Position numbers and translations under genes: made by a program. A model generated the notes under the pieces. The model did no database searches. It saw only the letters and a program-made list of their open reading frames with translations, and had not been told where the DNA came from. Positions 43,275 to 60,497 of a DNA stretch of 64,000 nt are shown piece after piece (position 1 is the first letter of the stretch; each line of letters opens with the position of its first letter). This DNA is from an uncultured Planctomycetia bacterium (lineage in GTDB: Bacteria > Omnitrophota > Gorgyraeia > B26-G9): NCBI GenBank assembly GCA_964437495.1, contig CAYTGV010000011.1, positions 3,964-67,963 of the forward strand, in the 5' to 3' direction.

Positions 43275-43499
43275 CTTTTGTCTCCTGGTTATCAGTCCAT
43301 GAATATAAGTAAATGATTAACCCCTATTGTATCATAAGACTGGATAATTTCAAGGAATAGAGAAAGTGGAGAGTTTGGGCAGGAAAAAGACACAAGACAC
43401 AGGTCACAAGTCACAAGTTTCAATTTGACCAACAATCTATTCTCTCCCCTTTTGGAATTTTTAGCTAAATTTCTTTGGTTTAGGTTTGAGTGTAGTTAT

Positions 43500-43830
43500 G
43501 GGGCGATGCCTGCCCCCGATGAAACGTCCCCCAGCCTTCATTTCCTTTTGTCGTCTAAAGGAAACGAAGCAAAGGCCCCGACTAAAAGCATGCGGGATAA
43601 ATTCAACCATGCAACTTACCTCAAAAAAAATCTGTAAGTTACGGTTTCATTTTAAAACTCGCCCCCAAAGAAACCGCGATGATTTTCTAATGGTTTACTC
43701 ACTGCGACTTCATCCCGCAAAAGGCGGGATTCGCCGCCAATTCGGCAGTCCTGCCTCATGGCGTTCCGCCGTCCTGGCTGCATCTTCGTTCCTAAACCAA
43801 AGAAAAGTCTATCGCTCATTTCAAAGGGGG
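43500..43830 (-). ncRNA. Copy A of a repeated ~230-330 nt structured-RNA-like element (unknown class). It is inverted relative to copies B and C and flanked by GTCACAAG-type direct repeats
   Basis: The reverse complement aligns with copies B and C. The shared 3' block is gcuggggga-cg-N-aucgggggcaggcaucgcccc, and the hairpin cuucguuucc/ggaaaugaag matches B. ORFs 43425..43637 and 43486..43836 overlap it and are judged spurious. Confidence 0.5.
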
Positions 43831-43956
43831 ATTTGAAAAACCGAAAAAAGTCACCAAGTCACAAGGTCACATGTCACAACTTAAAAATAGAACCATCCCT
43901 TTTTTTTCTTTTTTTAAAAATAAAAAATAATAAAGAAGCTCATTGATATAATATTA

Positions 43957-44052
43957 ACTAAAAACTAGTCGCTGTCCCTAGTTTCAAGTTCGAGATCACC
44001 TACTGGGGTGAACTTCTTCGCGCGCTCCCACCAGTTAGGTGGAATGAGTTGT
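43957..44052 (-). repeat. attC-like site (distal-most; R' end degenerate)
   Basis: acctactggggtgaacttcttcgcgcgctcccaccagttaggt is an imperfect palindrome homologous to the site at 48644..48718. It has ...gagttGTTATAAg at the ORF-proximal end. Confidence 0.55.
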
Positions 44053-44990
44053 TATAAGTTTAAATTTTCTATTTGCTCAATAGGCACGCCGTTTATTTTC
44101 CAAACAGGCTCTAATGCGTCAATTAAACCACAGTTAAAGTTTATAGAGCCGTTTTTTTCAAAATGCAAATTTATGCAGTCAGTTCCTTTATCCGTTCTTG
44201 AATAGGTTGCTTTTGAACCGTTTGAAAAATGAACACTGAAACCGTATAATCCTTTTTCCTCATTATTTAATAATTCTAGTATCTCATATTGAGGCCATTT
44301 ATGAAATTTTTTAGCTTTGCCACAAAAATTAAGGTATTCTTTATGCCACGATATTAATGCTCCATAAAAATTAAAGCAATTAGATATTAGTACGCTTATT
44401 TCTTCAAGTGGTATTTGTTGTGCAGGGCCTCCTTCAGTCCATCTATAATACTCAGAGGAAAATATATAATCTGAATGGAAAAAAGAATTTCTGACCTTGT
44501 TATTAAAAAAAGAATCAAAATATTCTATCAACAAAGTTTCTTTTGTTTTTGTTGCAAGTTCTTTTATATAATCTATTTTTCGCTTAGCACTTGGAGGAAT
44601 ATAGCCAAGTATTTGTTTTTTATTAGATCGTGATAAATGACCAAAGGGTCTAATATGATAATGTTCGCCAGCAATAATTCTTAATATATTAGTGAGTAAT
44701 TCGTGAGGAGCTGTCATTTCAATTGCTTGACAATATATTAATAAACCGATCCTCCAATGACCGTTTTTCGAAGGAGCATCTTTCGCTTTTTTCAAAAGCC
44801 AATTGTAATCTTCAAATGATTTTTGCGATTCTTCGAAAGAATCCCAGTCAGCGTCTTGGCACCCACCAACTCTCAAAAGAGAACATATTGTGTCAAAAGC
44901 ATTTTTTTCAAAAGCTTTGCGTGCTAACGAACAAAAATATTCGAAAAATTTTTCTTTTTCTATGAATTTCAATTCTTTTAAATCATTCAT
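44052..44990 (-). CDS. Cassette ORF, hypothetical protein (312 aa)
   Basis: Long ORF with attC-like sites on both sides. No recognisable motif. Confidence 0.6.
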   Translation of the reverse strand: MNDLKELKFIEKEKFFEYFCSLARKAFEKNAFDTICSLLRVGGCQDADWDSFEESQKSFEDYNWLLKKAKDAPSKNGHWRIGLLIYCQAIEMTAPHELLTNILRIIAGEHYHIRPFGHLSRSNKKQILGYIPPSAKRKIDYIKELATKTKETLLIEYFDSFFNNKVRNSFFHSDYIFSSEYYRWTEGGPAQQIPLEEISVLISNCFNFYGALISWHKEYLNFCGKAKKFHKWPQYEILELLNNEEKGLYGFSVHFSNGSKATYSRTDKGTDCINLHFEKNGSINFNCGLIDALEPVWKINGVPIEQIENLNL

Positions 44991-44998
44991 TTTTTTAC

Positions 44999-45124
44999 TT
45001 ATAACGTTTGAGCTCAGGCAACTTAGCTAATAGCCAATAGTCGATGGCTAATAGTTATCTTGCTTCATGTTTTTTACTATTGACCATCAGCTATGAGCCA
45101 TAGGCCATTCTGTTTGCTTGAAGC
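44999..45124 (-). repeat. attC-like site, family 1 (...GTTTGAGCTCAGGCAACTTAGCTRATAGCCAATAGTCGATGGCTAATAG...GACCATYAGCTAT...)
   Basis: TTATAAC at one end and GTTATAC at the other. The internal inverted repeat is ctaatagccaatagt / actattgaccatcag. Further copies lie at 51892..52003, 52290..52390, 53085..53265, 54868..55002, 55705..55870 and 56440..56590, with a partial copy at 50085..50250. Confidence 0.6.
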
Positions 45125-45130
45125 GAATTG

Positions 45131-45586
45131 TTATACTTTCTTATTATAATATAATCTAAATTTCTCAATAACTAAAATATATATTTGAGAGGGTTTCATC
45201 CCCTTGGTAATTGCAGAATCATAATCTTTGGGTGTTTTTATGTCCATAATTTTACCATCATTAAATTTTTCATGCCATTTTGATTTTTCACTTACTATTA
45301 TAGATTTATTTGAGTCTTCATACTGATCTGATGTGATATCAATAATAACACTATCCAGAACAATCCATTCATGCGAAGAACCATTATACATAGCGCCACA
45401 AAATCTTTTTGGCTTTAATCCGAACTCATTTTTTAGGCAATTTCCTAAAAATAATGTAGCCCAGCTACAACAACCACTAGGAAAATGCGGAAGAAAGCCA
45501 GGAGCATTATCTAGATTTATATTTTCAATAGACTTTCTGAATAATTGTGCTATTTTTAATAATTCTTTTTTATTAATTTTTTTCAT
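45131..45586 (-). CDS. Cassette ORF, hypothetical protein (151 aa)
   Basis: ORF with GTTATAC, then ctgaataa, then ATG upstream. Confidence 0.55.
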   Translation of the reverse strand: MKKINKKELLKIAQLFRKSIENINLDNAPGFLPHFPSGCCSWATLFLGNCLKNEFGLKPKRFCGAMYNGSSHEWIVLDSVIIDITSDQYEDSNKSIIVSEKSKWHEKFNDGKIMDIKTPKDYDSAITKGMKPSQIYILVIEKFRLYYNKKV

Positions 45587-45589
45587 TTA

Positions 45590-45678
45590 TTCAGAGTATA
45601 ACATCGACATCACCCGCCGGTAGACGCGACGCAAAGCGGCACGGGTAACGGTCCGGGGAATGAAGTCATTATATGTTT
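45590..45678 (-). repeat. attC-like site, short GC-rich family
   Basis: gtataacatcgacatcacccgccggtagacgcgacgcaaagcggcacgggtaacggtccgggg is an imperfect palindrome with a TATAAC end. Confidence 0.45.
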
Positions 45679-46689
45679 TTATCCCAACTTTAGTATTTTT
45701 ATATTTGAAAGTTTAGCTGGTCCACATTCATTAAAAAATCCAAATCTTAAATCTCTTTCAAATTCTGCAAAAAGATCTTTTCCATTACCACTATCATCTT
45801 GAATTATTAACTTTGCACCATCAACATAAAAATCAAATATTTTACTTGCAACATCAATCTTAACTTCAATAGCAAAAGAGTTTTTAACTTTTACTAATTT
45901 TTCGGGGACACAATTCAAAATTTTTGGCCAATAAAATTTTTGAGTGCAATGCAAAACACTATTTGGGGTTCCCGGAGCACCACGATTATCAAGTCGTAAC
46001 ATTTTAAAGTTGCCATCATCGACATAGTTAAAAACAAAATTAACTAAAGAATCTTTAGGTAACGATAAATCAAAAGCTAAATGCAAAAAAGTGCTAATCT
46101 TGTTTTTGAATATTAAAAAAGAATGAACTCTCGTTCTATCAATATTAAGATTCAGAACAAGATTAGAATCATAGTCTGGATTTCCAGCTAATTTATTTAA
46201 TATAAATTTCTCAATAATTATATTCTTCGATAGTGCGCTAAGTGTAGCATTAAGCAATCCCAGAGCCATCTGAGCATGCCCAAGATCAATGGGCCACCCC
46301 TTTTTTGCCTGTTTTTGAGGATGAATAAAATTTCTATAATCTTTAAATAGATTATAAATCAGCTTAAATTCATCTATTTCGGGAAGCAAGTCAACATCCT
46401 TTAAAAGAATATATAATTCGCTAATTGTAAGACTGTTAAATTTCTTTAATTTTTGATTAACTCCTTCTTTTGGGTATTTAGGAGAATTTTTTAATTCAGT
46501 TTTATAAATATCAGCTAAATATATAAAAATCCCTTCAATTGTGCTAATTGATAAAAAAATAGTACTATAATTAGCATTAACTATAAAAACTCTTTCTAAT
46601 TCTTGAAGTCTTCCACGCAATACAGCTCTTAACTCAACATCATTTATAAAATTAAGTTCTTGCTTTGTGATTTCAGTTTTGTATTCCAT
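45679..46689 (-). CDS. Cassette ORF, hypothetical protein (336 aa) with a DYRNFIHPQK motif (possible HEPN-like Rx4-6H)
   Basis: It shares the motif DYRNF[IV]HP.K with the unrelated cassette protein 46860..47684. Confidence 0.55.
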   Translation of the reverse strand: MEYKTEITKQELNFINDVELRAVLRGRLQELERVFIVNANYSTIFLSISTIEGIFIYLADIYKTELKNSPKYPKEGVNQKLKKFNSLTISELYILLKDVDLLPEIDEFKLIYNLFKDYRNFIHPQKQAKKGWPIDLGHAQMALGLLNATLSALSKNIIIEKFILNKLAGNPDYDSNLVLNLNIDRTRVHSFLIFKNKISTFLHLAFDLSLPKDSLVNFVFNYVDDGNFKMLRLDNRGAPGTPNSVLHCTQKFYWPKILNCVPEKLVKVKNSFAIEVKIDVASKIFDFYVDGAKLIIQDDSGNGKDLFAEFERDLRFGFFNECGPAKLSNIKILKLG

Positions 46690-46705
46690 TTAATTCCTTG
46701 TTTTC

Positions 46706-46882
46706 ATATAACGTTTGAACTCAGCTACTAAGTTGAGCTCCACCTGTCCCGCCGTTTTGTGGCGAGATTTGCGCTTGCCTCGCCAGGCTTTTTGGCGGGC
46801 GCACCCTCCAGCCTGAGAGATTTTTTAAATTCCTCAGGTTCTCGCACTCTTTAAGAGGGTTACCTGTAGTGATTTGTTAGTC
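46706..46882 (-). repeat. attC-like site, family 2 (GC-rich palindromic core ...cccgccgttttgtggcgag...ctcgccaggctttttggcgggcg...)
   Basis: CATATAAC-GTTTGAACTCAGC at one end and gatttGTTAGtc at the other. A related site lies at 48079..48191. Confidence 0.55.
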
Positions 46883-47684
46883 TACTTTTTTTTGTTAAAT
46901 TTTTTTCAAAATAATTACAAATACTATCCAGAGCCCCTTTAGCCATGAATGCTTCTGGTTCATCACATGAATGTTCTTCCTTTATTTCTTTTTTGGGATG
47001 AACGAAATTGCGATAGTCACGAAGAACCTGATCAATTGTATTCGCTTTTTTATCTGGCAGGATTGAAATATCAGTTGCAACTTCAATCAAATCTTTTAAC
47101 ACCCATTCATCTTTCAAAATATCTTTTACTTTTTTATGCTTATCTCTAGGTGCTTTTAAGCTAGCCATAGCTTTTTTTCTAATTTTACTTTTTGAACACA
47201 ATAAATCATATAATATTGCTTCTAAAATACTTCCTGCAATAATAACACAGCTTTTCCATGCTCTGCTAGGCAGTAAAATCACAGATAATTCCTTATAGTC
47301 TCTTTCAACTATATTGCGCAATTTTTTGTCCGAAATATAAGGAAAACAACGCTGTTCAGCAAAACTACCTTCACCCCCATAATTTTCAAGGATGTCGATT
47401 AATTTCTGTATTGTTGAATAAAGGTCTAAGCCAGGGTAAAGGAGAGGAAGAGTAAGAATAGAGTCTGATGTTTTTTTAGTATATCTTCTTATAACCACTC
47501 TTATACTTACAAACTCATATTGCCATTTGGGAAGAAAATCTCTAGGATCAAGGCGATTGATTTCTTCAGTAAGAGCTGTAAGTAATTCATGTACGTTTGC
47601 AGTTGTTTCATCATTCCTTTTTTTTTGCAAAGTTAAAGATTTCCTCTGTATCTCTGTACATAGTTTTTTTAAATAGCCAACCAT
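46860..47684 (-). CDS. Cassette ORF, hypothetical protein (274 aa) with a RDYRNFVHPKK motif (possible HEPN-like)
   Basis: The motif is shared with 45679..46689. The start is preceded by GTTAGAC. Confidence 0.55.
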   Translation of the reverse strand: MVGYLKKLCTEIQRKSLTLQKKRNDETTANVHELLTALTEEINRLDPRDFLPKWQYEFVSIRVVIRRYTKKTSDSILTLPLLYPGLDLYSTIQKLIDILENYGGEGSFAEQRCFPYISDKKLRNIVERDYKELSVILLPSRAWKSCVIIAGSILEAILYDLLCSKSKIRKKAMASLKAPRDKHKKVKDILKDEWVLKDLIEVATDISILPDKKANTIDQVLRDYRNFVHPKKEIKEEHSCDEPEAFMAKGALDSICNYFEKNLTKKSRLTNHYR

Positions 47685-47701
47685 ATTAATATTATTCCTT
47701 T

Positions 47702-47893
47702 GTCTAACAGGTTAATATACGAACTTCGCATTTTAAATACAGCGTAGAGCGTCTAATTTATCCCGCCGTTCTTTAGCGGGAGCGCTTAGCGAATTCAAAC
47801 TACCCCCTCATCCCTAAACCCTATTCCCTGCGTTTCTATCCCCTTTTCGCGCACATGCACCTACCGCGCACGCACCTACGAGGTGAATTTTAA
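47702..47893 (-). repeat. attC-like site, family X (long; contains atacagcgtatagcgtctaatttatcccgccgttctttggcgggagcgcttagcgaat)
   Basis: Three copies (47702..47893, 49374..49560, 58740..58985) share more than 85% identity over about 120 nt, including the hairpin cccgcc-gttcttt-ggcggg. The R'-like ends GTTAGAC/GTTAGAT abut the downstream ORF starts. Confidence 0.55.
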
Positions 47894-48058
47894 TTATTTA
47901 TCTTTATCTACTGTATTTATATCGCAAGGAACTACAGCTCCACATTTAGGACATTTAGTAGGGATGCCCTTAATCTGAATATGCAAACCTTCTTCATGTT
48001 GAATAGGGGATTCAAATCTATTATTGCATTCGGGACAAGACAAGTATCTCTTAGACAT
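47894..48058 (-). CDS. Cassette ORF, 54-aa zinc-ribbon protein (absent from the ORF track; below the length cutoff)
   Basis: The minus strand reads ggaggaacta ATG and encodes MSKRYLSCPECNNRFESPIQHEEGLHIQIKGIPTKCPKCGAVVPCDINTVDKDK*. It has two CPxC pairs and a strong RBS, and sits exactly between two attC-like sites. Confidence 0.6.
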   Translation of the reverse strand: MSKRYLSCPECNNRFESPIQHEEGLHIQIKGIPTKCPKCGAVVPCDINTVDKDK

Positions 48059-48195
48059 TAGTTCCTCCTTTATTGCTGTATAACATTTGAGCTCAGCTAC
48101 TGGCTTGAACTACTTTTGCGCACACCCTCCAGCCTAAGAAATCTCAGGTTCTCGCCCTCTTTCGAGGGTTAGCTGAAGTAATTTGTTATCTGTTT

Positions 48196-48630
48196 TTATT
48201 CTTTTTCTTCTAGAACTTTTTGCACAACACCTTCAGATATTACTATTTCTTCTCCTGTAACACTGATAAATTGAAAGGTTTTAGTATTAATCAATATAGT
48301 TTCTATTGCCAATGGGAGTGTCCTGGTAAGACATATAACCTTATCTTTTGTCCCAGTTGGAAGGCCAGAGTAAATATATGAGATTGTATATTTATCATTA
48401 ATTTTGTCTAATTTGGTTTGGTCGGAAGGATTTGTTTGTTCGATTATGCGTGCTAGTTGAAATGTTTCATTTATTTTTATTCTATGCACGAATAAGTTTG
48501 GATTTTTCTCTGGAATTATTTCCCCATTTTTATATATACCAACATTTTGCTCAGTTAAAACTAATGTTTCTGTAGCTAAGGCGTTAGAGCATATAAAAAG
48601 AAAACCAAGTAATAAAATTAGTTTTTTCAT
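48196..48630 (-). CDS. Cassette ORF, secreted or lipoprotein (144 aa)
   Basis: The signal peptide is MKKLILLLGFLFICSNALA. GTTATATG, then aaaggaaa, then ATG lie upstream. Confidence 0.6.
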   Translation of the reverse strand: MKKLILLLGFLFICSNALATETLVLTEQNVGIYKNGEIIPEKNPNLFVHRIKINETFQLARIIEQTNPSDQTKLDKINDKYTISYIYSGLPTGTKDKVICLTRTLPLAIETILINTKTFQFISVTGEEIVISEGVVQKVLEEKE

Positions 48631-48643
48631 TTATTTTCCTTTC

Positions 48644-48718
48644 ATATAACATTCAAACTCACCTACTGGGGTGAACTTCTTTGCACGCTCCCACCAGTTA
48701 GGTGAAAGAGTTGTTAGA
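48644..48718 (-). repeat. attC-like site (short palindrome acctactggggtgaac...cccaccagttaggt)
   Basis: CATATAAC and GTTAGAG ends. It is homologous to the site at 43957..44052. Confidence 0.55.
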
Positions 48719-48720
48719 GA

Positions 48721-49374
48721 TTATTTGTCGAAATTTATTTTAATATTTTTATAACCCAGCTTTTCGAATATATTACACAAACTTGAAAATGCTTGTCTAT
48801 CATTATGTATTAAATGAGGTCCTACATCAAGAAAAGCTCTACTAATCATATAATAAAAATCGCTGCCAAACAATAAGAGCTCTTTCATAACTGCATGACT
48901 AGGCAAGGAATTTCGTTTAGCTTGGTATTCTGCATGAGCAATTACTTTGTTTCGGACATAATCGTATTGTGAAAAACAAATCTTATGTTTTGAATAAAAG
49001 TTTTTGCAGATAACTTCTAGTGTTTCAATGTAATTATCTTTCTCACTATTGTTCTCATATTTTTCTATAAATTCATTAACGTATTCATAATATTTTGGTT
49101 GAACATCATTGCTTTTTATAAAGTTTAAAATTGCGGGAATGGAGTTCAGTTGATAATCTTTTTCTGGTTCAAAAATTTTACAAATATTAATTACGCAAGA
49201 CTCTAAAAGAACCATCTGAATGTGAACAAAAAATCTTTTTCCTATTCCAATAGTGTTTATATTGTCTGCGTTTAAGCCGAGTAGCTTTTCTGAATCAATG
49301 CTTTGCTTAAGTGAAAAAAGTATTTTTGCTAATTCTTTATTTCTCTCATCTAATTTTTTCATCATTTTTTTCAT
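48721..49374 (-). CDS. Cassette ORF, hypothetical protein (217 aa) with a possible HEPN-type Rx4-6H motif (RNKVIAH)
   Basis: ORF with GTTAGATGaaaaaa then ATG upstream. The motif assignment is tentative. Confidence 0.5.
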   Translation of the reverse strand: MKKMMKKLDERNKELAKILFSLKQSIDSEKLLGLNADNINTIGIGKRFFVHIQMVLLESCVINICKIFEPEKDYQLNSIPAILNFIKSNDVQPKYYEYVNEFIEKYENNSEKDNYIETLEVICKNFYSKHKICFSQYDYVRNKVIAHAEYQAKRNSLPSHAVMKELLLFGSDFYYMISRAFLDVGPHLIHNDRQAFSSLCNIFEKLGYKNIKINFDK

Positions 49375-49582
49375 CTAACATTTAATATACGCAATTCGCA
49401 TTTTAAATACAGCGTATAGCGTTTAATTTATCCCGCCGTTCTTTGGCGGGAGCGTTTAGCGAATAACAAATCCAAAACTACCCCCTCATCCCTAACCGCT
49501 GCTTTTAACTAGTAATTCATAATTCACGTGTGCCCTTTAGGGTTTAACTCATAACTATGTTTCCCTATTCTCTGCTTTTCTG

Positions 49583-49814
49583 TCTCCCCTTTGAAACCAA
49601 GCATTATGTTTTTCTTTAAGTTAGGCGTTTGGGCGAAGACAGGATGTCGAAGCGCCGTAAGGCAGGATTGCCTTTTCGGCGGTTTACCCATGAGACTAAC
49701 TTATTAGAAAAACAATGCTGTTTCTCAGGGGCGGTTTTCCTTTGCTTCGTTTCCTTTAGACGCCAAAAGGAAATGAAGGCTGGGGGACGCTTTATCTGGG
49801 GCAGGCATCGCCCC
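49583..49814 (+). ncRNA. Copy B of the repeated structured-RNA-like element, embedded inside a composite attC region
   Basis: It aligns with copy C. The helix gcgccg...cggcg (B) versus gugccg...cggca (C) shows a compensatory change. The hairpin cuucguuucc/ggaaaugaag (with a G.U pair on this strand) versus cauacuuucu/agaaaguaug in C also shows compensatory changes. The conserved 3' end is gcugggggacgc..aucgggggcaggcaucgcccc. The overlapping 72-aa ORF 49629..49847 is judged spurious. Confidence 0.5.
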
Positions 49815-50256
49815 TTAATCCCACATAAATCCCCTGCCGCTTTCTAAAAATAAAAAAAGACAATCCCCTCAATCTCTTGAGAAAATCGCCTTAAAATTAA
49901 ACTTTTTGTATGCACTCATTAATTCTACTCCTTTGTAGCCTTATGAGTTTGTCAAAACCATATTAATTTAGGTTACATCTTTCTCTTACACAAGTCAATG
50001 AAAAATCAAACAGGGAAAACTGCCCCATTTTAATGAACTTTTATGTTTTTTCTCTCCACTTTTAATATATTCTATATAGTCGATAACCAATAGTCTATGG
50101 CTAATAGTTATTTTATCTTTAATCTGCTTCTTCACTCATCACTAATAATTCATAATTTGTAACTATTTGGACCATTAGCTATGAGCTATAAGCCATTTCA
50201 TTTGCCTGCCTGTCCCGCCGCTTTTTGGCGGGGAAGCGATTTGTTAGGGGTTTTAT

Positions 50257-50622
50257 CTATAGATCATTACGTAAATTTGTTAGTTTTCTTTCTAAAACTG
50301 CAAGTTCTCGTAATGTATTCTCTTTAAGTTCAGTGTTTTTATTATCAACCTCACTAAAATCTATGTTTTTATAAGTATTTCTCAGGAAAATGAATTTTTC
50401 CAGCCAAACATTTAAATCCTGCCGTTCGGTTTCTTCACCCTCATTTATAAATATTTCCATACCATCAGTCAATTCTTTCCAGTAAACCTTTACTATTGAA
50501 AACACAGCATCTGGACTTTCGTCTTCATTAATATCAAGGCGAGTTGTCCATAACATAACTTCATTTAATTCAATTATGTCTAACAAAGAATCAACTACTT
50601 CCTTAATAATATCTCTACTCAT
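50257..50622 (-). CDS. Cassette ORF, hypothetical protein (121 aa)
   Basis: RBS AAGGAG. A TTGACA-N16-TAAAAT promoter-like sequence lies about 60 nt upstream on the minus strand. Confidence 0.55.
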   Translation of the reverse strand: MSRDIIKEVVDSLLDIIELNEVMLWTTRLDINEDESPDAVFSIVKVYWKELTDGMEIFINEGEETERQDLNVWLEKFIFLRNTYKNIDFSEVDNKNTELKENTLRELAVLERKLTNLRNDL

Positions 50623-50944
50623 AATTACTCCTTACCAATTTTATTCACACCTGATTTACTGTAATAAATTGTGCACCTTTAGGTAGACTAGGCATTCAAA
50701 TTTCACAACCTGAATGTCAGACCTTGATTTTAGACATTTTTTGTCAATTGTCAAGGTTTGCCCCCAGGTAATTTAGCCGATGGCTAATAGTTATTTTATT
50801 TTTAATCTGCTTGTTCACTTATAACTAATAATTCACTTGTGCCCTTTAGGGTCTTTGGGCTATTAGCTATGCCTGTCCGCTGTGCTTTGTAGCGAAAGCC
50901 ATTAGCCATTCTGATTGCCTGAAGCGATTTGTTATAATCTTAAT

Positions 50945-51310: not shown

Positions 51311-51328
51311 TTTATTCTCCTTTTTTAG

Positions 51329-52392: not shown

Positions 52393-52869
52393 TTATATCT
52401 CTCCTTTAAGCTGTTTTTGTTCTACCAAAAATCGATTTAACAGATTAGCAAATCCATGCGCATCTTTTTGACTAAAAGGAGATGGGCCTTTAGTCGGCAT
52501 ACCGTTATCGCGCATCTCTTGCATTAGATTGCGCATTGATAAATAAGATTTAATATTATCCTCGCTGAATAAATTTCCCCGATGATCCATAGCATAAGCT
52601 TTTTTAGTAATAACACTATCCGCCAAAGGAATATCTGCAGTTATAACCACATCACCTTCTTTGACCATTTCCACAATTCGCTCATCAGCCTCATCAGGTC
52701 CTGCCTCAACTATAAGATAAGTTATAAACTCTGATTTACCAATATTGATCCGTTTGTTTGATACAACAACACTCGGGAGAGAAAATCGTTTAATCGCTCT
52801 AAATAAAATTTCCTTTATCCGATTAGGAAAAGCATCGCCATCAAGGTATAGAGTCATCTTCATTAACAT
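52393..52869 (-). CDS. Cassette ORF, YaiI/UPF0178 (DUF188) family protein
   Basis: LYLDGDAFPNRIKEIL...GDVVITADIPLA...MRNLMQEMRDNG parallels E. coli YaiI (IWVDADACPNVIKEIL...GDLVITADIPLA). Confidence 0.7.
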   Translation of the reverse strand: MLMKMTLYLDGDAFPNRIKEILFRAIKRFSLPSVVVSNKRINIGKSEFITYLIVEAGPDEADERIVEMVKEGDVVITADIPLADSVITKKAYAMDHRGNLFSEDNIKSYLSMRNLMQEMRDNGMPTKGPSPFSQKDAHGFANLLNRFLVEQKQLKGEI

Positions 52870-53054
52870 ATCTGTTTAACCCTTCCGACAGCGCCGTCAA
52901 TCAATCTAACTTTTATCCCATGCGAATGCACAGAAGAATTTGTCAATATATCCTGAACAATCCCCTCGGTTAACTTACCGCTTTTTTGATCTTGTTTTAA
53001 TACTATTTTAACCTTCAAGCCTTGCTTTATATTTACTCTTTCATTTCCACTCAA
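52863..53054 (-). CDS. Cassette ORF, YwbE (DUF2196) family small protein
   Basis: A 63-aa protein with VKIVLKQDQKSGKLTEGIVQDILTNS...HGIKVRL, matching the YwbE signature. It shares a cassette with the YaiI gene and overlaps it by 7 nt. Confidence 0.6.
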   Translation of the reverse strand: MSGNERVNIKQGLKVKIVLKQDQKSGKLTEGIVQDILTNSSVHSHGIKVRLIDGAVGRVKQIC

Positions 53055-53270
53055 AATAATAATAGTTTCCTTTCTAAAACATTAAAATAAACCATGACAT
53101 CTCAGGCAATTTAGCTGATGGCTAATGGTCGATAGTCAATTGCTAACAGATATTGCAATTTTGTTTTTTGTTTATTGTTTTTCACTATTAGCCATTAGCT
53201 ATGCCTGTCCGCTGTGCTTTGTGGCGGAAGCTATTGACCATTGTAAAATGTCACTCTCCCCTTTTATCTC

Positions 53271-54749
53271 TTAGAATTTTCTGTAGAAAAATATGCATAT
53301 CTTCTTTAGCAGGGCATTATTCATCTTATTCATTATCCAAGTTTCCGCGATACGCTTAGATAAAAACCCCATAGTCGGAAATGAATGTGCCAGAAAAAGA
53401 ATATTAAGCAAGTTGATCTTTTTTTGAATTATAAGTGCCCATTCATTTATCATTTCACCTGAGCCCTCACCGATAATACTCACCCCATATACTTTTCCCA
53501 AAGGGCTGGCAAAAACCTTTATAAAACCAACCGCGATATTCTCCGCGATCGCAGCACCGTAATCCTCGTATTTAACAATAAGCGTTTCATACTTTATTCC
53601 TTTAGCTTTAAGTTCTTTTTCCATCATACCCACATAAGAAACCTGCGGTTCAGTAAAAGCTGTCCAGGGTATCACATAATTTCTGTATTGAAACAGCGAA
53701 AAAGGGCTAACAGCATTCATTATCGAAAACATTCCCTGATGCATTGCCACATGTGAAAGCATTATACCGCCATTACAATCTCCCACTGCATAAATATTCT
53801 TATTGCTTGTCCTGTATTTTGCATCAACCTTGATACCGTTCTTATCATATCCAACCCCGGCATTTTCAAGTTTTAAAGCATGAAGATCAATATTTCTCCC
53901 CGAACAGAGCAATAATTTTTCAGATTTTATACAAAGCCCGTCATCAGTGCGCAAAACAATCTGCCCCTCCTGATTGTTTACGCTGATAATCTTTTTTAAG
54001 TTGTAAACATCAATTCCTTCCTTTTTAAAGACTTCTTCAAGTACATTCCCAGCTTGTTTATCGCCAAAAGGTATAAGATGTTCATCCATTTGCACAATAC
54101 TACACTTAGTCCCAAGCCGAGTAAACGCCTGAGCCATCTCACAGCCCATAACACTGCCGCCGATTATAGTCATACTTTTAGGAGCTTCCTTTAAATCAAA
54201 AATATTTAGATTGGTTAGAAAATCTATATCAGAAATACCTTTTATTGGCGGAATTTGAGGCTCTGTGCCAACAGCAATAAAGATTCTCTGAGCAGTTAAA
54301 GTATCATCTCCCACTTTAACAGTATGCGCGTCTATAAAACTGGCATCTCCTTTTTCTAATATAAGCTTAACCTTATCAAACATTTTTATTGTCTTTTTAT
54401 TACATATGAAATCAAGATATTCAGCTATTTCTTTAGAAGGAAATTTTACTCGCAAATCCGGCTCTTTAATCACTCCTATTTGGCTGAGTTTTGAAAGCGA
54501 ATGCCTTAGCTTAGCGATTCTGAGCAGTGCTTTGCTAGGTATGCATCCTACATTCATACACTCTCCGCCAATTTTATTTTTTTCAATAGCGCATACTTTT
54601 AATCCCATTTCCGCGCCCATAATAGAAACAGCCATCCCGGCAGGTCCTAACCCAATACAGATTAGATCAAAATCATATTTCATGTATTCTCCTTGATCTT
54701 CCTTTTTCCAAACAACACTCTTGCATTCATTAAACCCGCAATTACTCAA
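53271..54749 (-). CDS. Cassette ORF, pyridine nucleotide-disulfide oxidoreductase (dihydrolipoamide dehydrogenase/mercuric reductase family)
   Basis: A redox-active disulfide GGECMNVGCIPSK, FAD- and NAD-binding GxGxxG motifs, and an extended hydrophobic C-terminal tail. Confidence 0.75.
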   Translation of the reverse strand: MSNCGFNECKSVVWKKEDQGEYMKYDFDLICIGLGPAGMAVSIMGAEMGLKVCAIEKNKIGGECMNVGCIPSKALLRIAKLRHSLSKLSQIGVIKEPDLRVKFPSKEIAEYLDFICNKKTIKMFDKVKLILEKGDASFIDAHTVKVGDDTLTAQRIFIAVGTEPQIPPIKGISDIDFLTNLNIFDLKEAPKSMTIIGGSVMGCEMAQAFTRLGTKCSIVQMDEHLIPFGDKQAGNVLEEVFKKEGIDVYNLKKIISVNNQEGQIVLRTDDGLCIKSEKLLLCSGRNIDLHALKLENAGVGYDKNGIKVDAKYRTSNKNIYAVGDCNGGIMLSHVAMHQGMFSIMNAVSPFSLFQYRNYVIPWTAFTEPQVSYVGMMEKELKAKGIKYETLIVKYEDYGAAIAENIAVGFIKVFASPLGKVYGVSIIGEGSGEMINEWALIIQKKINLLNILFLAHSFPTMGFLSKRIAETWIMNKMNNALLKKICIFFYRKF

Positions 54750-55019
54750 ACCAATATATACATGTCTCTTGCAGATCTTTTGTCAATGCAATACTATTTT
54801 TGTCTCAGTCAGGTGTAAATTCTGCTTTTTCAGTAATGTTTGACTTTTTTTATCCCCTTTTTCACTATATGACGTTTGAGCTGCCAGTTTAGCTAACTGC
54901 CAATAGTCGATGGCTAATAGTGGTTTGCTCTATATTTTTTTACTATTTACCATTAGCTATAAACCATGAGCCATTATATTTACCTAAAGTAATTTGTTAG
55001 ATGTTTATATATTTTAAAA

Positions 55020-55364
55020 TTAATCTTCTACAAAAATTGTTTTCTTTATCGGATTAGGTGCTTTTACTACCAAAAACTTCAATGGATTTTGACTTTCATT
55101 GTACCAACAATGCACAATATCTTTCGGACTATCTATTAAAGTATTTTTTGAAACTTTTTGTTTTTCTTCTCCGATCTCAACAATTCCTTCTCCTTCCAGT
55201 ACATAAAAGACAACATCAACAGGTGTTATGTGACGCTTTAATGATTGACCTGGAATTAGCGTGATTACTGTAATCATGACTGCTTCTTTATTGTATAGAT
55301 TTCTAACGTCCACGTTGTGCGCATTATTCATTATTTGAGTTTCATCTAATTTTTTTATTATCAT
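55020..55364 (-). CDS. Cassette ORF, cupin-domain protein
   Basis: A 114-aa protein with a cupin-like G(x)5HxH-type segment (LIPGQSLKRHITPVDV...). Confidence 0.45.
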   Translation of the reverse strand: MIIKKLDETQIMNNAHNVDVRNLYNKEAVMITVITLIPGQSLKRHITPVDVVFYVLEGEGIVEIGEEKQKVSKNTLIDSPKDIVHCWYNESQNPLKFLVVKAPNPIKKTIFVED

Positions 55365-55422
55365 TTTATCTCCATTGTTATTATTAATAATTTTAATTCT
55401 TTTATTACCGATTAAAAAGCAC

Positions 55423-55680
55423 TCAACCCACCATCTTCATAATCCCCACATAAGCACCAAAACCAATACCCCAGGAAATTGCTACCCAAAAGATTAGTTT
55501 TGTTTCGGCTAGAATATCTTTCCAATATTCCCCTCTACACATTGAAAAAATATTTGGGATGAGCCAAAATTTTATACAACGCAAAAATTCTTCTTTGTCT
55601 CCGAAAAAGGGTTTCCATAGAAGATAGGCTAGGCCGACTCCTACTATAGTTCCCACACTCTTACTAATAATAGCTATCAT
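55423..55680 (-). CDS. Cassette ORF, small membrane protein (85 aa)
   Basis: Two hydrophobic helices, in the same cassette as the cupin gene. Confidence 0.4.
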   Translation of the reverse strand: MIAIISKSVGTIVGVGLAYLLWKPFFGDKEEFLRCIKFWLIPNIFSMCRGEYWKDILAETKLIFWVAISWGIGFGAYVGIMKMVG

Positions 55681-56000
55681 ATACTCTCCGTTTCATGGAT
55701 TCCTATAACATTTGAGCTCAGGCAACTTAGCTGATAGCCAATAGTCGATGGCTGATAGTTATGTTGCTCTATGTTTTTTACTATTCACCATTAGCTATGC
55801 CTATCCGCTGTGATTTGTAGCGGAAGCCATTAGCTATACGCTATTGACCATTTTAAAATGTCGCTGTCCCCTTTAATACACGTTTGATTTTATATATAAC
55901 GTTTAAGCTCAGGCAAAAATCAGCGCATAGAAAATTCAGACATAGTAATCGCTGTCTCTTTTCCCCTCACTAAATCAAGAACAGTTCAGTCTAATCTCTT

Positions 56001-56414
56001 TTATTGTTTTTTCTCTCTTAAATATAAAACTAACACACAAACTCCATGGATTACAAAAGCCGGTGCAAATAAAAGGCCTATAAAGTATCCATTAGTGCTT
56101 ATTCCGGAAGCAAATGCCCAGATGTATATTGCTGATACACCTAAACTAGCAATCGCATCTACCAATTTATAATTATCTTTCTTATAGTATAAAGGCAAAG
56201 CGCCTAATGCTGCATAAATAGCTCCGTTAAAAATCAGAGTTATCGTTTCCTTCTGGGATATGCCAAGTTTAAAAATATTTTGTATCCCAAATAATAAGCC
56301 CAAAAAACCTAAAAGAAGTAAAGGAAAATGGTAGTACATAGCAATATTGGGATTGAATTTCTCAAGAACATGTCCGAGAGTTCTATTTTCATTTGTAGTT
56401 TTGTTTTCTTCCAT
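56001..56414 (-). CDS. Cassette ORF, 4-TM membrane protein (137 aa)
   Basis: Hydrophobic profile only. Confidence 0.5.
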   Translation of the reverse strand: MEENKTTNENRTLGHVLEKFNPNIAMYYHFPLLLLGFLGLLFGIQNIFKLGISQKETITLIFNGAIYAALGALPLYYKKDNYKLVDAIASLGVSAIYIWAFASGISTNGYFIGLLFAPAFVIHGVCVLVLYLREKKQ

Positions 56415-56607
56415 GTCTTACTCTCCATTTTCTTTATATAACGTTTGAGCTCAGGCAAATTAGCTGATAGCCAATAGTCGATGGCTAATAGTTATTTTAT
56501 TTTTAAACTGCTTCTTCACTCATAACTAATAATTCATGTGTGCCCTTTAGGGTATAACTCATAACTATGTTTACCTATCCCCTGCTTTTCTCTCACCCTT
56601 TTAAAAC

Positions 56608-56637
56608 ATAATATGCCATTTCCATGAATTTTGTCAA
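56608..56637 (-). promoter_or_regulatory. Near-consensus sigma-70 promoter (TTGACA-N18-TATTAT) reading into the downstream cassettes
   Basis: The minus strand reads TTGACAaaattcatggaaatggcaTATTAT. An almost identical copy lies at 60182..60211. Confidence 0.55.
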
Positions 56638-56728
56638 TTTTATATTATTTTTGTCTTTTTATCCCCTTTTGGAATTTTTAGCTATATTTCATTGTTTTAG
56701 GGGAATGGATGGAGTAGAGGCGAAGGAA

Positions 56729-58561
56729 TTAAATGCTTTGGTCAATTTTTGTTTTGTTTTGAACCTGAAAAATTTTTATCCCAGCGGCAAGAAATGAAAT
56801 TGAGGCGAGATTTGCTAGGTTTTTGCTGTTTAGCTCTTCTTGCACCCATTCTGTTTGATTAACAGAGGATCCTAAAAAAGTATGTAAAAGTCTAGCGGAA
56901 ATAGAACGTTCTTTGGCTTGGGTTGTAAAATTAGGAGATTTAGCAAGAGAAATGACTTTTATTTTTTCTTGGATAGATAAGTCATTATAGAAATTATTTA
57001 TAACCTGTAGTAATTGTTCAAATCTCTGATTGCTGGTTGTGTATGCAGGCAATTCGGCTTTTCTTGATAGAAACGGCTCTTTAGTTCCTAAGAAATCTTG
57101 ATCTACATCTAAAATTATATCTTGATCTTCATCTGCAAGTTTTTTAAGTTTTATTGCATCCTTGGGAGATACTAAATGAACCTCTACTTTTCTTACATTA
57201 GTGAATTTTGCATTTTCGCCTTCCCATTCTTCTTTGATATACCCTTTTTCATAACTTCCAAAAACGTTGTTTCCATCTAAAGATACAGAAACAAAAGTAT
57301 CTTTGCCTCTAAACATTGCTTTTCCAATAAGAATTTCATATTTTTTGTTATATTCTGGAACGTAGTCTACGTTGCTGGATTCATTTGCTTCTTCAGGGAC
57401 AACCCAAATTATTTTATCGATTATCCCAGCATAAACAGCTGGAATAATGAAACCATCGATGTCAGATTTTTGGGTAATGCGTCCTAACATTTCATTATTA
57501 AAATTTCCGTTCAAAAAAGCATCTAAAAAATCATTATTTAATCTGTAAGAAGCTAAATCTCGATGGGCATCAAAGTGAAATAAGGTTCTTTTTTTTGTTT
57601 TAGGACCTAACTCCTTCATCCAAGCATATAATGCCCAATAATGAGCATAGCCTATATAAACCGGAATATCGGTAGAAGTAATTGCTCTGGGTTTAGAGAT
57701 ATTGTTAAAAAGATCTAGCTCATAAAAAAAATCAGCATTCTCAAACTGATCTTGGATTACTGAATATGTGTTTTGATCAAAAATCAATGGGTATGTGCCT
57801 GCATCAAACCAAGTTACATATTTTTCTTTATTATCTTTATTGGCATATAATTCAAAAATTTTGTTTGCACGGCTTAATCTAGAAAACATGATGTCTAAAT
57901 ATGATATTAAATCTGTTTCACCTTTAATTGTTAAAGATTCTTTTAATTTCATAAAATGCATTTGCTGTTCATTATAAATTTTTGATGCCATTAACCAATC
58001 ACTACTATTCAAAGAATTGAGGAATAATTTCCAAATGGGATCATTTGTATCAAGGGTGATATCCGCATTTTTTAATAAAGAGTTTAAATGATTACCTACT
58101 GTCATTTTAGAATATCGAAGCTTATCTATAAATTTTTTTTCTTCTTGTTTTTTGAGAATTAATTCAGGATTAGCTTTTTTTACATATAATCCTGCATTGG
58201 CAATGCCTGGAGGAACTAAGGCATAAGTTATGGCGGCTCCAGTTAATATTCCCAAACCTTTGATAAATTTTCTTCTTCCAATAGAGATGTCTGAGTTTGC
58301 ATTTTTTGAATCATCAGAAATAATAAATCTTTTGATAAATGATTTTATATATTCAGCAAATTTTTTATTTTGGGGAGTTTTAGCTATCTCTATTGTATCT
58401 TTAAAGTATTCTTTTAAGTTTATATTGTTTAATTGTAAATGCGGGGCAAGGTGATTATTAAGTTCTATACAATAAGCCAAATCACCCAGAAGAAACATAT
58501 TAATTAAGAATAAAATGCAAAGTTGTTTCATTAGTTTATTTATTCTAATCTTAAGTTTCAT
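56729..58561 (-). CDS. Cassette ORF, large hypothetical protein (610 aa) with an internal twin-arginine-like segment (RRKFIKGLGILTGAA)
   Basis: Long ORF. The true start may be internal. No catalytic motif recognised. Confidence 0.55.
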   Translation of the reverse strand: MKLKIRINKLMKQLCILFLINMFLLGDLAYCIELNNHLAPHLQLNNINLKEYFKDTIEIAKTPQNKKFAEYIKSFIKRFIISDDSKNANSDISIGRRKFIKGLGILTGAAITYALVPPGIANAGLYVKKANPELILKKQEEKKFIDKLRYSKMTVGNHLNSLLKNADITLDTNDPIWKLFLNSLNSSDWLMASKIYNEQQMHFMKLKESLTIKGETDLISYLDIMFSRLSRANKIFELYANKDNKEKYVTWFDAGTYPLIFDQNTYSVIQDQFENADFFYELDLFNNISKPRAITSTDIPVYIGYAHYWALYAWMKELGPKTKKRTLFHFDAHRDLASYRLNNDFLDAFLNGNFNNEMLGRITQKSDIDGFIIPAVYAGIIDKIIWVVPEEANESSNVDYVPEYNKKYEILIGKAMFRGKDTFVSVSLDGNNVFGSYEKGYIKEEWEGENAKFTNVRKVEVHLVSPKDAIKLKKLADEDQDIILDVDQDFLGTKEPFLSRKAELPAYTTSNQRFEQLLQVINNFYNDLSIQEKIKVISLAKSPNFTTQAKERSISARLLHTFLGSSVNQTEWVQEELNSKNLANLASISFLAAGIKIFQVQNKTKIDQSI

Positions 58562-58992
58562 AAGTAATCAGTTTTCCTATTAACTAAATTATAAGTATCA
58601 ATTAAATTATACCTTATAACGTAGATATTATACAAATTAGTTAGCGTAATTTATTGATTTAATTGTTAGCTAAAACTATAGCTGGAAAGGCAATAAAAAT
58701 TAAGATTAGTAAATATTTATTTATGATTTATTTTCTTAAAATAACAATTAATATACATAGTATGTGTTAAATACAGCGTATAGCGTCTAATTTATCCCGC
58801 CGTTCTTTGGCGGGAGCGCTTAGCAAATCCAAAACTATCCCCTCATCCCTAACCGCTGCTTTTAACTCGTAATTCATAATTCACGTGTGCCCTTTAGGGT
58901 ATTTGGGCCATTAGCTATGCCTGTCCGCTGTGCTTTGTAGCGAAAGCCATTATGTTTGCCTGTAGCGAATTGTTAAAAATGTTTTAAAATAG

Positions 58993-60039
58993 TTAATTTT
59001 TATTTTCTATCAAATTTTTTAATTCTTTAGCAAGTAAAGACTGTCCCAATTTATTTAAATGACAATAATCAAGAAAAAATTTCTGTGTGTTCGCAGGGTT
59101 GTTATTAACTTGTTTTAGGAAATAATCATCCAGATTTAAAATATTTAAGTTATCTAACCCTATTAAGTTTTGTTTAATCATCGATTGAAGTTGCGGAGTA
59201 ATGAGAAATCTTCTTTTTATCCAATTTTTTTCGATTATATCTCTAGTGATATTAATATCTTTCGGCATTTCTATATTCAATTGGTCGTATTTTTTCATAT
59301 GGTTCCAATTGTGTGTATAGTTTATTGGGGGAATAACATAAATAAAATTTGTTTGAGGGTTATCATTTATTATACTTCTTAGTTCTCTTAGTCTCATTTT
59401 ATAAAATGAATTTTGCAATGAAATATAGAATTTGTTTAAATAAGGCCAAGAATCTTTCCCTCCACCTTTTATTATCGCAAAGGGAAATCGATGAGGATGC
59501 TTTGATTGGCATATTTTGTCGTATAAAGTATTTATTGTATTATGAGTTGTGTGTGAAAAAAAACTGATTTGAGAAAAGATTTTGGGTAAAAAGTATCGAA
59601 TGAGAAAAACTGCACAATTAGAATGTTCACTACGGTTTAGTAGTTCTAAATATTCATTATTACCAGAAAAAATAACGCAATTTTCAATATCATTTGTTCT
59701 TAAGGAGTTATATAAATAGTAATTTATTTCTGAGAGAGGAATCCCAATGTTTGAATCATTAATGATGGTACTTTTGGGGAAATAACTTGCTAGCAATTCA
59801 GAATATCTATCGTTAATATTTTCTAACCCCGCTCCTTTTGAAGCTGAGCCTCCAAGACAAAGAATATCAATCTTCTTACCAAAATCATGCACCTCAGGCA
59901 ATTTAAAAGATACTTCTCTTAGTACATAAAATCTTTTCCCCCGCCCTATAGTAATCCGAGTTATTAACTCAACAGCGCTTAGAATAATAATGAGGGTAAA
60001 AAATACAACATATAGTTTGTGGAGAATATTTTTTTTCAA
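58993..60039 (-). CDS. Cassette ORF, membrane-anchored hypothetical protein (348 aa), possibly SGNH/GDSL-like
   Basis: An N-terminal TM helix. ILCLGGSASKG weakly resembles GDS(L) block I. Confidence 0.45.
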   Translation of the reverse strand: MKKNILHKLYVVFFTLIIILSAVELITRITIGRGKRFYVLREVSFKLPEVHDFGKKIDILCLGGSASKGAGLENINDRYSELLASYFPKSTIINDSNIGIPLSEINYYLYNSLRTNDIENCVIFSGNNEYLELLNRSEHSNCAVFLIRYFLPKIFSQISFFSHTTHNTINTLYDKICQSKHPHRFPFAIIKGGGKDSWPYLNKFYISLQNSFYKMRLRELRSIINDNPQTNFIYVIPPINYTHNWNHMKKYDQLNIEMPKDINITRDIIEKNWIKRRFLITPQLQSMIKQNLIGLDNLNILNLDDYFLKQVNNNPANTQKFFLDYCHLNKLGQSLLAKELKNLIENKN

Positions 60040-60181
60040 GATTTTAATTTCTTATTTTTAACAATTAATATACATAGTATGTGTTTGCTTGAAGGTATTC
60101 TTAATCTTGCCCTGAATATGGTTAAAATTGCCTACTTTAACTTTAATATTTATCTATTTTATCAATAATATCATATTATCC

Positions 60182-60211
60182 ATAATATGTCATTTCTATG
60201 AATTTTGTCAA
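60182..60211 (-). promoter_or_regulatory. Near-consensus sigma-70 promoter (TTGACA-N18-TATTAT) at the proximal end of the cassette array, Pc-like
   Basis: The minus strand reads TTGACAaaattcatagaaatgacaTATTAT, reading towards the first cassette (58993..60039). Confidence 0.55.
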
Positions 60212-60233
60212 TTTTATATTATTTTTGTCTTTT

Positions 60234-60497
60234 TCTCCCCTTTTGGAATTTTAGCTATATTTCTTTTTTTTAGGGGGATGGACGAAAACAGGATGTTGGA
60301 GTGCCGTAAGGCAAGACTGCCTTTTCGGCAATGGATTTTCGAGACTTCAGACTCGGAAATTCATCCAGACACCTAAACCATTAGAAATATGCAAAAATTC
60401 CTTAGGGGTGGGTTTTCTTTGCATACTTTCTTTTAGCCACCGAAAGAAAGTATGGCTGGGGGACGCAACATCGGGGGCAGGCATCGCCCCCCCCCCC
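60234..60497 (+). ncRNA. Copy C of the repeated structured-RNA-like element, at the proximal boundary of the array; it ends in an 11-nt C tract
   Basis: See copy B. It has compensatory hairpins relative to A and B and a conserved 3' block. ORFs 60128..60376 and 60347..60556 overlap it and are judged spurious. Confidence 0.5.

Follow-up and report, generated by a model that had tools for sequence, protein, structure and literature searches.

A candidate structured interspersed repeat found in and beside integron cassette arrays in a family-level clade of Candidatus Omnitrophota

Background

Bacterial genomes harbor families of non-coding intergenic repeats, such as BOX of Streptococcus pneumoniae, ERIC, Correia, RUP and SPRITE, which occur in tens of copies and are modular, with optional internal modules. 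BOX-type repeats are predicted to form stable single-strand structures with compensatory changes, and their mobilising enzyme is not established or acts in trans. An element that can be compared with these families was noticed in three copies, designated A, B and C, in a 64,000-nt stretch of DNA (the window) from an uncultured bacterium of the Omnitrophota (assembly GCA_964437495.1, contig CAYTGV010000011.1, positions 3,964 to 67,963), where the copies are located inside and at both ends of an array of integron-type gene cassettes. We tentatively interpret the element as an interspersed repeat, non-coding and structured, that had not been catalogued before and belongs to a family-level Candidatus Omnitrophota clade. 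The element is new to the catalogues, and its general kind is already known.

The DUF1874 motif has been discussed as a possible complex attC, and comparative analysis cannot separate a structure formed by single-stranded DNA (ssDNA) from a structure formed by RNA (Weinberg et al. 2017, PMC5737381). In the following, G000 denotes the source genome, other G-numbers denote other genomes and C-numbers denote contigs; the window is located on G000 contig 11.

Results

The three copies and their conserved fold

The coordinates used for the three copies are those of a covariance model (CM) built for the element.

43499-43835, minus strand: copy A, CM match of 206.8 bits, a full element of the A-type subfamily
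49581-49815, plus strand: copy B, CM match of 259.9 bits, the shortest complete form
60232-60491, plus strand: copy C, CM match of 214.7 bits, full, with an additional hairpin, P5

Whole-length alignment confirmed that the three copies are related, from the T-rich leader and CCCC through the terminal GGGGC-N7-GCCCC hairpin, with large indels falling only at the starts or ends of hairpins. The conserved 3' block GCTGGGGGACG..ATCNGGGGCAGGCATCGCCCC reported in the preliminary description was present in all three copies, as were both of the compensatory helices quoted there. The end of copy C, placed at 60497 in that description, was revised to 60491, the last part being a poly-C run beyond the terminal hairpin.

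The unit measures ~235-385 nt. On its 5' side a short T-rich leader is followed by CCCC, and its 3' end is the exact foot of the GGGGC-N7-GCCCC hairpin. Among five A-type copies, similarity stops exactly after ...GCATCGCCCC on one side and ~10 nt before CCCC on the other, and no target duplication was seen at these five recent copies. The 5' ~150 nt are predicted to form a long interrupted rod, in which P1 (CCCC..GAAA with UUUC..GGGG) is followed by a variable helix and then by P2 (UUUUCUUU-GGUUUAGG with CCUAAACC-AUU-AGAAAA), and which closes a three- or four-way junction bearing P3, P4 and the optional P5. The loop of P3 is C-ANGAN-G, and P4 includes an inner hairpin with a similar loop. This 5' domain, to which the long inverted arms of the element are confined, is followed by a 13-17 bp hairpin of near-invariant sequence, a short linker with two length variants, and the terminal hairpin. 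Optional hairpin modules of ~45 nt and ~85 nt are inserted in loops in a few copies. In copy B, the 5' domain spans 49584-49733, and the junction closed by its long interrupted P1-P2 rod bears P3 and P4. The long 3' hairpin of this copy spans 49734-49788 and the terminal hairpin, GGGGC-AGGCATC-GCCCC, spans 49798-49814. In copy A, an optional ~85-nt insert (~43576-43662) separates the 5' domain from the 3' hairpin, and only five to six family members carry one.

Folding of copy B gave a minimum free energy of -98.6 kcal/mol (z = -6.4), which was 12 kcal/mol better than that of its reverse complement. Covariation was counted in 59 distinct sequences aligned to the covariance model, and since fitting to a model favours structure somewhat, the counts were compared with those for shuffled alignments and, for the score, for pairing partners slid along the alignment.

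Cells that pair: 95.1% observed, 83.7% shuffled
Pairs with double changes, of 54: 36 observed, 19.2 +/- 2 shuffled
Covariation score: 0.310 observed, 0.115 shuffled, 0.04-0.08 with partners slid

The initial proposal of a conserved structure was therefore upheld, as double changes exceeded the shuffled level and the slid controls collapsed. An independent MAFFT/RNAalifold analysis found double changes in 21 of 42 pairs. On the strand chosen in the preliminary description, G-U and U-G pairs numbered 171, versus 25 A-C and C-A pairs (~seven to one), and this excess argues for selection on this strand in a single-stranded state. Judged from sequence alone, the fold is evidently under strand-specific selection, which would be expected of RNA and of ssDNA alike.

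Protein coding, which had been ruled out for the three copies, was excluded for the larger family as well: lengths modulo 3 were spread evenly (21/20/18), and C-type copies keep the helix while the peptide changes entirely. The one shared peptide, GAMPAPD... on the reverse strand, mirrors the conserved nucleotides, and stops occur within it in some copies. A small forward-strand open reading frame (ORF), MKAGGR..., was rejected as not conserved, since one variant has a 5-codon stop and others lack an ATG. The idea of a CsrA sponge, suggested by the ACAGGAUGU loop in P3, was dropped because the first G of GGA varies (CACGAUG, CAUGAUG).

The element also remains unclassified, as originally stated. 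Scanned against Rfam 15 at gathering thresholds, the window yielded two tRNAs only, with genes at 612-694 and 752-823 on the minus strand, and when A, B and C were searched at a permissive E-value the best E was 0.25 and no score exceeded 22 bits. No match for the element was obtained in Rfam 15, including the models for hammerhead, twister, pistol, hatchet, HDV-like, group I and group II intron, HEARO, tmRNA, RNase P and SRP. The preliminary description had raised, as one option, a candidate new class of self-cleaving or otherwise catalytic RNA carried on mobile DNA. The complex junction with invariant unpaired nucleotides (GACGAAG, GGAGCG), the sharply defined ends and the unclassified status in Rfam would be in keeping with such a class. 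However, no ribozyme model matches, the length of ~250 nt is far above the size of known self-cleaving classes, and the defined ends are explained equally at the DNA level, so that we consider a ribozyme very unlikely.

Family size and distribution

The preliminary description counted three copies, but nhmmer searches expanded this number considerably. In the G000 assembly (2.1 Mb in 83 contigs, 37.7% G+C, 92% completeness), BLAST and iterated nhmmer identified ~19 full-length and ~5 partial copies over 14 contigs. Two 5' fragments are also present in the window.

43444-43485, plus strand: 5' fragment of ~42 nt, BLAST 90% identity to positions 1-41 of copy C, repeat family D7
56657-56709, plus strand: 5' fragment of ~53 nt of a C-type copy, BLAST 92% identity, repeat families D7 and D15

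The first fragment adjoins the 3' end of copy A on the opposite strand. The second has the same upstream leader as the C-type copies and is cut off beside a cassette ORF; the 50 nt upstream of copy C are 96% identical to 56607-56656 (repeat family D15).

Of the 17 other genomes of the same family, 10 contained the element by BLAST, and 24 further genomes from elsewhere in the class yielded no match. A pattern scan of public genomes gave matches only in metagenome-assembled genomes titled Candidatus Omnitrophota. When covariance model R1 was run on a phylum-wide sample of 150 genomes, one match was convincing (92 bits, in G168), and it retains P2-P4 and the long hairpin; weak matches in G055 and G087 were discarded as G-rich low-complexity sequence. 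No match was found in plasmids or phages by blastn, nor in viral contigs by the pattern scan, and no structured RNA or repeat family from Omnitrophota is described in the literature searched or in Rfam.

The family is multi-copy, dispersed and partly fragmented, with one subfamily recently amplified in G000, and copies occupy different loci in sister species. A tight clade restricted to G000 consists of the five A-type copies at five different loci, and other G000 copies group with copies of G001, G003 or G004. The best interspecies matches between copies are 84-90% identical and are located at non-syntenic loci, compared with 71-81% for neighbouring genes; syntenic copies between species are just 70-78% identical. 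Decay products are present in the form of 5' fragments, 3' fragments and solo terminal hairpins. One of the solo hairpins lies in G004 at a site where G000 has a syntenic full copy. Three of the five A-type copies share ~80 nt more upstream and two share ~50 nt downstream, and these shared flanks of differing length suggest that recombination or segmental copying also contributes.

Cassette array and attC sites

The presence of a cassette array, as claimed in the preliminary description, was verified.

43985-58975, minus strand: cassette array of the type known as clusters of attC sites lacking integron integrases (CALIN-like), without an assembled integrase, consisting of small ORFs split by attC sites, repeat families D1-D14

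Real, textbook attC sites lie between the small minus-strand ORFs from ~43985 to 58975. The intergenic sites of the array have RYYYAAC ... GTTRRRY boxes together with complementary L boxes or inner arms, and include textbook ~75-nt attC sites (~43985-44062, 48640-48715 and 51325-51400) as well as long attC sites with heptamer-repeat centres (~45000-45140, 51893-52036 and 55704-55860). The array ORFs include those encoding AbiU2-HEPN, cupin, DUF188, GDT1 and UPF0489 proteins and a 492-aa flavoprotein.

Copies of the element are enriched in and beside cassette arrays, including the central loop of attC sites: 7 of 24 copies are located within 1.5 kb of an attC-type motif, versus 0.44 expected at random (~16-fold). 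Copy B was rightly placed inside a composite attC, since the 880-nt intergenic region around it is a mosaic of attC modules. In G009, an intI-linked array has a copy inside its last attC, between the L'' and L' arms. Copy C may tentatively be assigned a similar position, between a putative R''L'' half-site at ~60054-60080 and GTTAAC at ~60525. Copy A is located immediately outside the last attC of the array with its 3' end directed away from the array, and copy C is located at the opposite end, its 3' end likewise directed away. The element is nevertheless not tied to cassette arrays, as had been supposed, but is a genome-wide repeat with 17 of 24 copies away from attC-type motifs.

The element does not have R''/R' boxes in the order found in attC and is not itself an attC site. 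An ORF-less gene cassette would be bounded by the G|TT crossover and end in its own attC; approximately half of the copies are preceded by G|TTTT. Attempts to find an attC belonging to the copies themselves were negative, the search for arms in the flanks not being discriminating; when arms and attC boxes were searched for around every copy, most copies lacked complementary arms, although the scoring also missed the known G009 case. Copies B and C run counter to the cassette ORFs, an orientation also reported for group IIC-attC introns, whereas copy A and the G009 copy have the same direction as the cassettes.

The tyrosine recombinases of G000 were considered as integrases and proved to be XerC and XerD, not IntI. 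Integron integrases scoring above 400 bits were found in 11 of 18 family genomes, three congeners among them, with classical arrays alongside. Bona fide IntI was present in nine of ten relatives with the element and in two of seven without it, these genomes being related and so not independent. Three intI-linked arrays of relatives, 13-18 kb each, contained no copy.

Several further observations were made on these arrays. Classical chromosomal integrons occur in Omnitrophota at L091, L094, L095 and L096 (G009, G001, G015 and G006, respectively), and their IntI ORFs, of ~430-448 aa, are ~100 aa longer than the 315-position integron-integrase model. An IS110-family (Transposase_20) gene inside the cassette array of G006 (L096 12703-13794, minus strand, corresponding to G006:C8 ~42.7-43.8 kb), opposite to the cassettes, resembles IS1111-attC insertions of other phyla. 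Tandem heptamers (GTGACTT/GTGACCT, TAGCTAA/TAGCCAA, TTAGGGT, TTTTTAC and others) fill intergenic DNA and the centres of long attC sites, often as inverted blocks, at 43390-43425, 43845-43880 and 45030-45120 of the window and in many G000 intergenic regions. A recurrent ~30-nt motif, TTGACCATTTTAAAATGTCACCGTCCCCTTTT, has an ending that resembles the 5' start of the element (TCCCCTTTT) and is located at 52357-52394, 53230-53267 and 55840-55877 of the window and upstream of A-type copies (e.g. 43895-43925), and in several array intergenic regions it directly follows the stop codons of cassettes.

Island borders and inverted pairs

Inverted head-to-head pairs of the element bracket variable gene islands. 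Copies A and C had been described as lying at the two array ends in opposite orientation, and the same arrangement was found in the congener G004. Homology with three congeners stops at position 43354 of the window and resumes just upstream of copy C. In G004, a copy of another subfamily occupies the syntenic place of A in the same orientation, the start of a C-like copy is present, and the upstream region is kept; the interval from A (minus strand) to C (plus strand) is 16.7 kb in G000, versus ~1.1 kb with one cassette in G004. A second island of 12.6 kb, on G000 contig 2, has a minus-strand copy on its left and a plus-strand copy on its right, with 5' ends inward, and the same bounds in G003 and G004; neither element is present at this locus in G001. 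Further head-to-head pairs were identified at two more G004 loci and in metagenome contigs, those in L076 and L131 being ~20 nt apart. Over all head-to-head pairs, spacers range from 20 nt to 16 kb. In total, ~9 head-to-head, 2 tail-to-tail and 7 tandem pairs were counted, several of them orthologous, a distribution that is suggestive.

It is conceivable that the element acts as folded DNA in cis within integrons, either as a compact 'variable terminal structure' that would keep a very long attC foldable, or as a landing pad or boundary at which cassettes would gather, so that head-to-head dimers would nucleate integrase-less arrays. The location of B, the G009 copy and probably C between two attC arms, the bounding of the array by A and C in two species, the range of head-to-head spacers, the enrichment near attC motifs and the co-occurrence with IntI across the family are consistent with such a role, and structures of ssDNA and RNA are inseparable by comparison (PMC5737381). 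However, a cis-acting integron component appears unlikely when set against the majority of copies away from attC-type motifs, the scarcity of flanking complementary arms (in the search that missed the G009 case), the inconsistent direction relative to the cassettes, the three intI-linked arrays of relatives that have no copy, and an internal sequence lacking the ordered R'' and R' boxes.

Mobility and candidate partner enzymes

The interpretation that we provisionally prefer is that the element is a new non-autonomous, structure-dependent interspersed repeat, similar in kind to BOX, REPIN (doublets of repetitive extragenic palindromic, REP, sequences), bacterial interspersed mosaic elements (BIME) and miniature inverted-repeat transposable elements (MITE), and not a cassette-specific ribozyme. 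The unit would spread by mobilisation in trans, with the mobilising or processing machinery recognising the fold in a single-stranded state, either as an ssDNA intermediate or as a transcript. Hairpin-rich intergenic DNA, including attC centres, would be the preferred landing site, and inverted pairs would end up bracketing variable islands. Candidate enzymes encoded in these genomes are HUH (Y1) proteins resembling REP-associated tyrosine transposases (RAYT-like) and the integron or Xer tyrosine recombinases.

Several results weigh against this interpretation. Clustering of neighbour proteins found no protein recurring adjacent to copies, and no mobilising enzyme is linked to them; recurring TPR neighbours were set aside as repeat similarity and not a partner. 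RAYT-like proteins of 220-330 aa, some with a DnaA C-terminal-like domain, are encoded in all 18 family genomes (1-17 per genome) regardless of the element, their gene numbers do not track it, and none of the genes adjoins a copy. An ssDNA mechanism of the IS200/IS605 type would predict strand bias, and none was seen: in G000 the orientation of copies relative to GC skew was 12 versus 7, without significant bias, a result that speaks against a lagging-strand mechanism like that of IS200/IS605. Congeners yielded no clean empty site, their loci being rearranged or holding a solo hairpin, and transposition is a step that we infer. The sharing of flanks would fit recombination or segmental duplication as well as transposition, and the conservation of subfamilies between species above that of neighbouring genes, together with the 36 of 54 covarying pairs, would also be expected of RNA genes.

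An apparent antisense bias of copies relative to their neighbours (12 of 19) was rejected, being the same 12:7 split as for GC skew and not significant. The compositional strand asymmetry of G000 is very strong: |GC skew| averages 0.19 over 30-kb windows, and the G-rich strand carries the overwhelming majority of genes. Excision was looked for in the Logan contigs of two DNA runs, but the joints there, which were short-sided and derived from paralogous repeats, provided no evidence of it. No convincing site matching the canonical dif consensus was found.

A RAYT-like gene is located at 6063-7055 of the window (minus strand) and others at five further G000 loci. Hairpins of the form GTAGGGGC...GCCCC, similar to the terminal hairpin, are found inside RAYT-like (Y1) ORFs, namely in a degraded G001 copy (L097 ~3400-3650) and at G000 C10:49189 and C26:3113. 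A second repeat family of ~10 copies consists of GC-rich hairpins, TATATTGTTAC-GGGCCGGGACAAGCGCGGCCC-CTAC-GTATTTATATT, and its loci in G000 are C1:127769, C2:76949, C3:101826, C3:118582, C8:14721/14805, C26:17081/21156 and C30:13863.

The size, the multi-copy protein-less state and the sharp 3' end followed by variable sequence resemble derivatives of HEARO or omega RNA, and it might be supposed that the copies are protein-less derivatives of that end of an RNA-guided transposon which bears the guide or scaffold RNA, such as the omega RNA of TnpB/IscB or the bridge/seek RNA of IS110/IS1111; IS1111-type elements reportedly target attC. However, TnpB is encoded in none of the 18 family genomes. 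IS110-type transposases were absent from G000, G003, G005, G009, G011 and G013, all of which have the element, and present in G002, G006, G010, G012 and G014, which do not, a distribution uncorrelated with the element. No CM match was found beside IS200 TnpA genes or at six IS110 loci, a canonical IS200 copy inspected in G004 has ends that bear no relation to the element, and neither HEARO nor any other Rfam model matches. A guide RNA origin is therefore largely refuted. The attC-targeting elements cited as context in the preliminary description (group IIC introns and IS1111-attC) are likewise not supported, as no machinery of the group II, IS1111/IS110 or IS605 type fits: the element is not a group II (IIC-attC) intron, given that no Rfam intron model matched and no RVT_1 domain was found in G000, and reverse transcriptase occurs mainly in family genomes without the element, with no copy situated at its loci.

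A rather unlikely reading is that integrons are linked to a recombination or mobilisation system not yet recognised, of which the element would be the nucleic-acid part. It would then act either as a folded landing pad, a new kind of attI equivalent whose head-to-head dimers would seed and delimit integrase-less arrays and variable islands, or as a family of guide-like RNAs, with subfamilies conserved between species and the protein encoded elsewhere.

Transcription signals

It is also possible, though doubtful, that the copies constitute a family of genes for trans-acting structured non-coding RNAs that are transcribed individually, with subfamilies having distinct partners or specificities. 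Strong strand-specific covariation, the near-invariant helix sequence of the 3' hairpin, the recurrence of ANGAU-type loops in P3 and P4, the greater identity of subfamilies between species than of nearby genes, the retention of syntenic copies in G003 and G004, and an orientation independent of neighbours and of the replication strand are all compatible with RNA genes. On the other hand, no promoter of the element's own was found at a fixed upstream distance, the strong matches being divergent promoters of neighbouring genes, and a forward intrinsic terminator within 170 nt was predicted for only 9 of 54 copies, no better than on the reverse strand. The lack of a recurring protein partner nearby, the many truncated copies and the five near-identical copies at five loci likewise speak against RNA genes. 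Two metatranscriptomic runs share 7-10% of the sampled words of copy B, and no RNA run is listed as holding the region of copy C.

An example of a promoter-like site is found in the leader of copy C.

60182-60211, minus strand: sigma-70-like promoter TTGACA-18-TATTAT (11/12), part of the repeated leader of the C-type subfamily

This site is directed away from the 5' end of copy C, into the first cassette ORF, and belongs to repeat family D19, which occurs three times in the window. In some subfamilies, the copies have 60-80 nt of upstream sequence in common, with imperfect palindromes such as CGTATAA-N9-TTATACG and ATAAT-rich boxes, as at 60165-60230 of the window and at G000 C1:130190-130265, C15:27070-27150, C6:5950-6015 and C23:8100-8170; these features could be divergent promoters or recombinase-binding sites. 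A minority of copies and a solo hairpin of G004 are followed by a conserved tail (..CCTCAAACATGCAC.TCAA.CAC..). On the strand of the element, the CCTCAAACATGCAC tail ends in a strong hairpin resembling an intrinsic terminator, at C2:79950-80010 (L028 12950-13010) and in G004:C33 (L136 3500-3575).

Discussion

Omnitrophota are uncultured bacteria with small genomes, and the element provides a well-supported 250-nt fold with ~60 distinct natural variants, which is suited to biochemical probing. The element is found at the borders of variable islands and within attC sites of chromosomal integrons, and it is this link to integron arrays that makes it worth experiment. Acting as DNA, the fold would represent a rare case of a complex ssDNA structure in the recombination sites of integrons; acting as RNA, it would represent a new class of multi-copy RNA. 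In both cases, the element can serve in practice to flag assembly breaks and the limits of islands in these genomes.

Comparison with described systems places the element near several of them. Like the lineage-specific motifs of the kind reported by Weinberg et al., it was found by comparative structure, is located in consecutive or cassette-like intergenic regions and shares the ambiguity between ssDNA and RNA (PMC5737381). Unlike them, it matches none of the motifs in Rfam 15, and its copies lack the regular alternation with ORFs that is seen for attC sites. Like group IIC-attC introns and IS1111-attC elements, the element interrupts attC sites in some of its copies, but it is associated with no reverse transcriptase, DEDD transposase or domain V, most copies are located outside arrays, and copies occur in both orientations. 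The structured, multi-copy unit of ~250 nt, often without an adjacent ORF and with a sharp end, is reminiscent of HEARO and omega RNAs and of the palindrome-associated transposable elements (PATEs) of IS200/IS605; it differs from these in that there is no TnpB, IscB or matching TnpA, no Rfam HEARO match and no replication-strand bias.

The likeness to REP, BIME and REPIN sequences consists of a terminal hairpin that is rich in GC and, in about a quarter of the copies, has (C)TAC after it, the occurrence of inverted doublets, the absence of terminal inverted repeats and target duplications, and the presence of RAYT-like genes in every genome of the family. However, a REP measures 20-40 nt, and in the present element the hairpin accounts for no more than the final 17 nt of a 250-nt fold; in contrast to REPIN-RAYT systems, the RAYT-like genes are not flanked by copies. 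The element differs from MITEs in that its termini are not mutual inverted repeats and no duplication accompanies the five recent copies, so that it is not placed among them.

BOX, ERIC, Correia, RUP and SPRITE have all of the traits described for them above in common with the element. The element is roughly as long as these repeats or longer, has a branched multi-helix 5' domain in place of a simple hairpin, and shares no sequence similarity with them; it is confined to one Omnitrophota family and is associated with attC sites and island borders.

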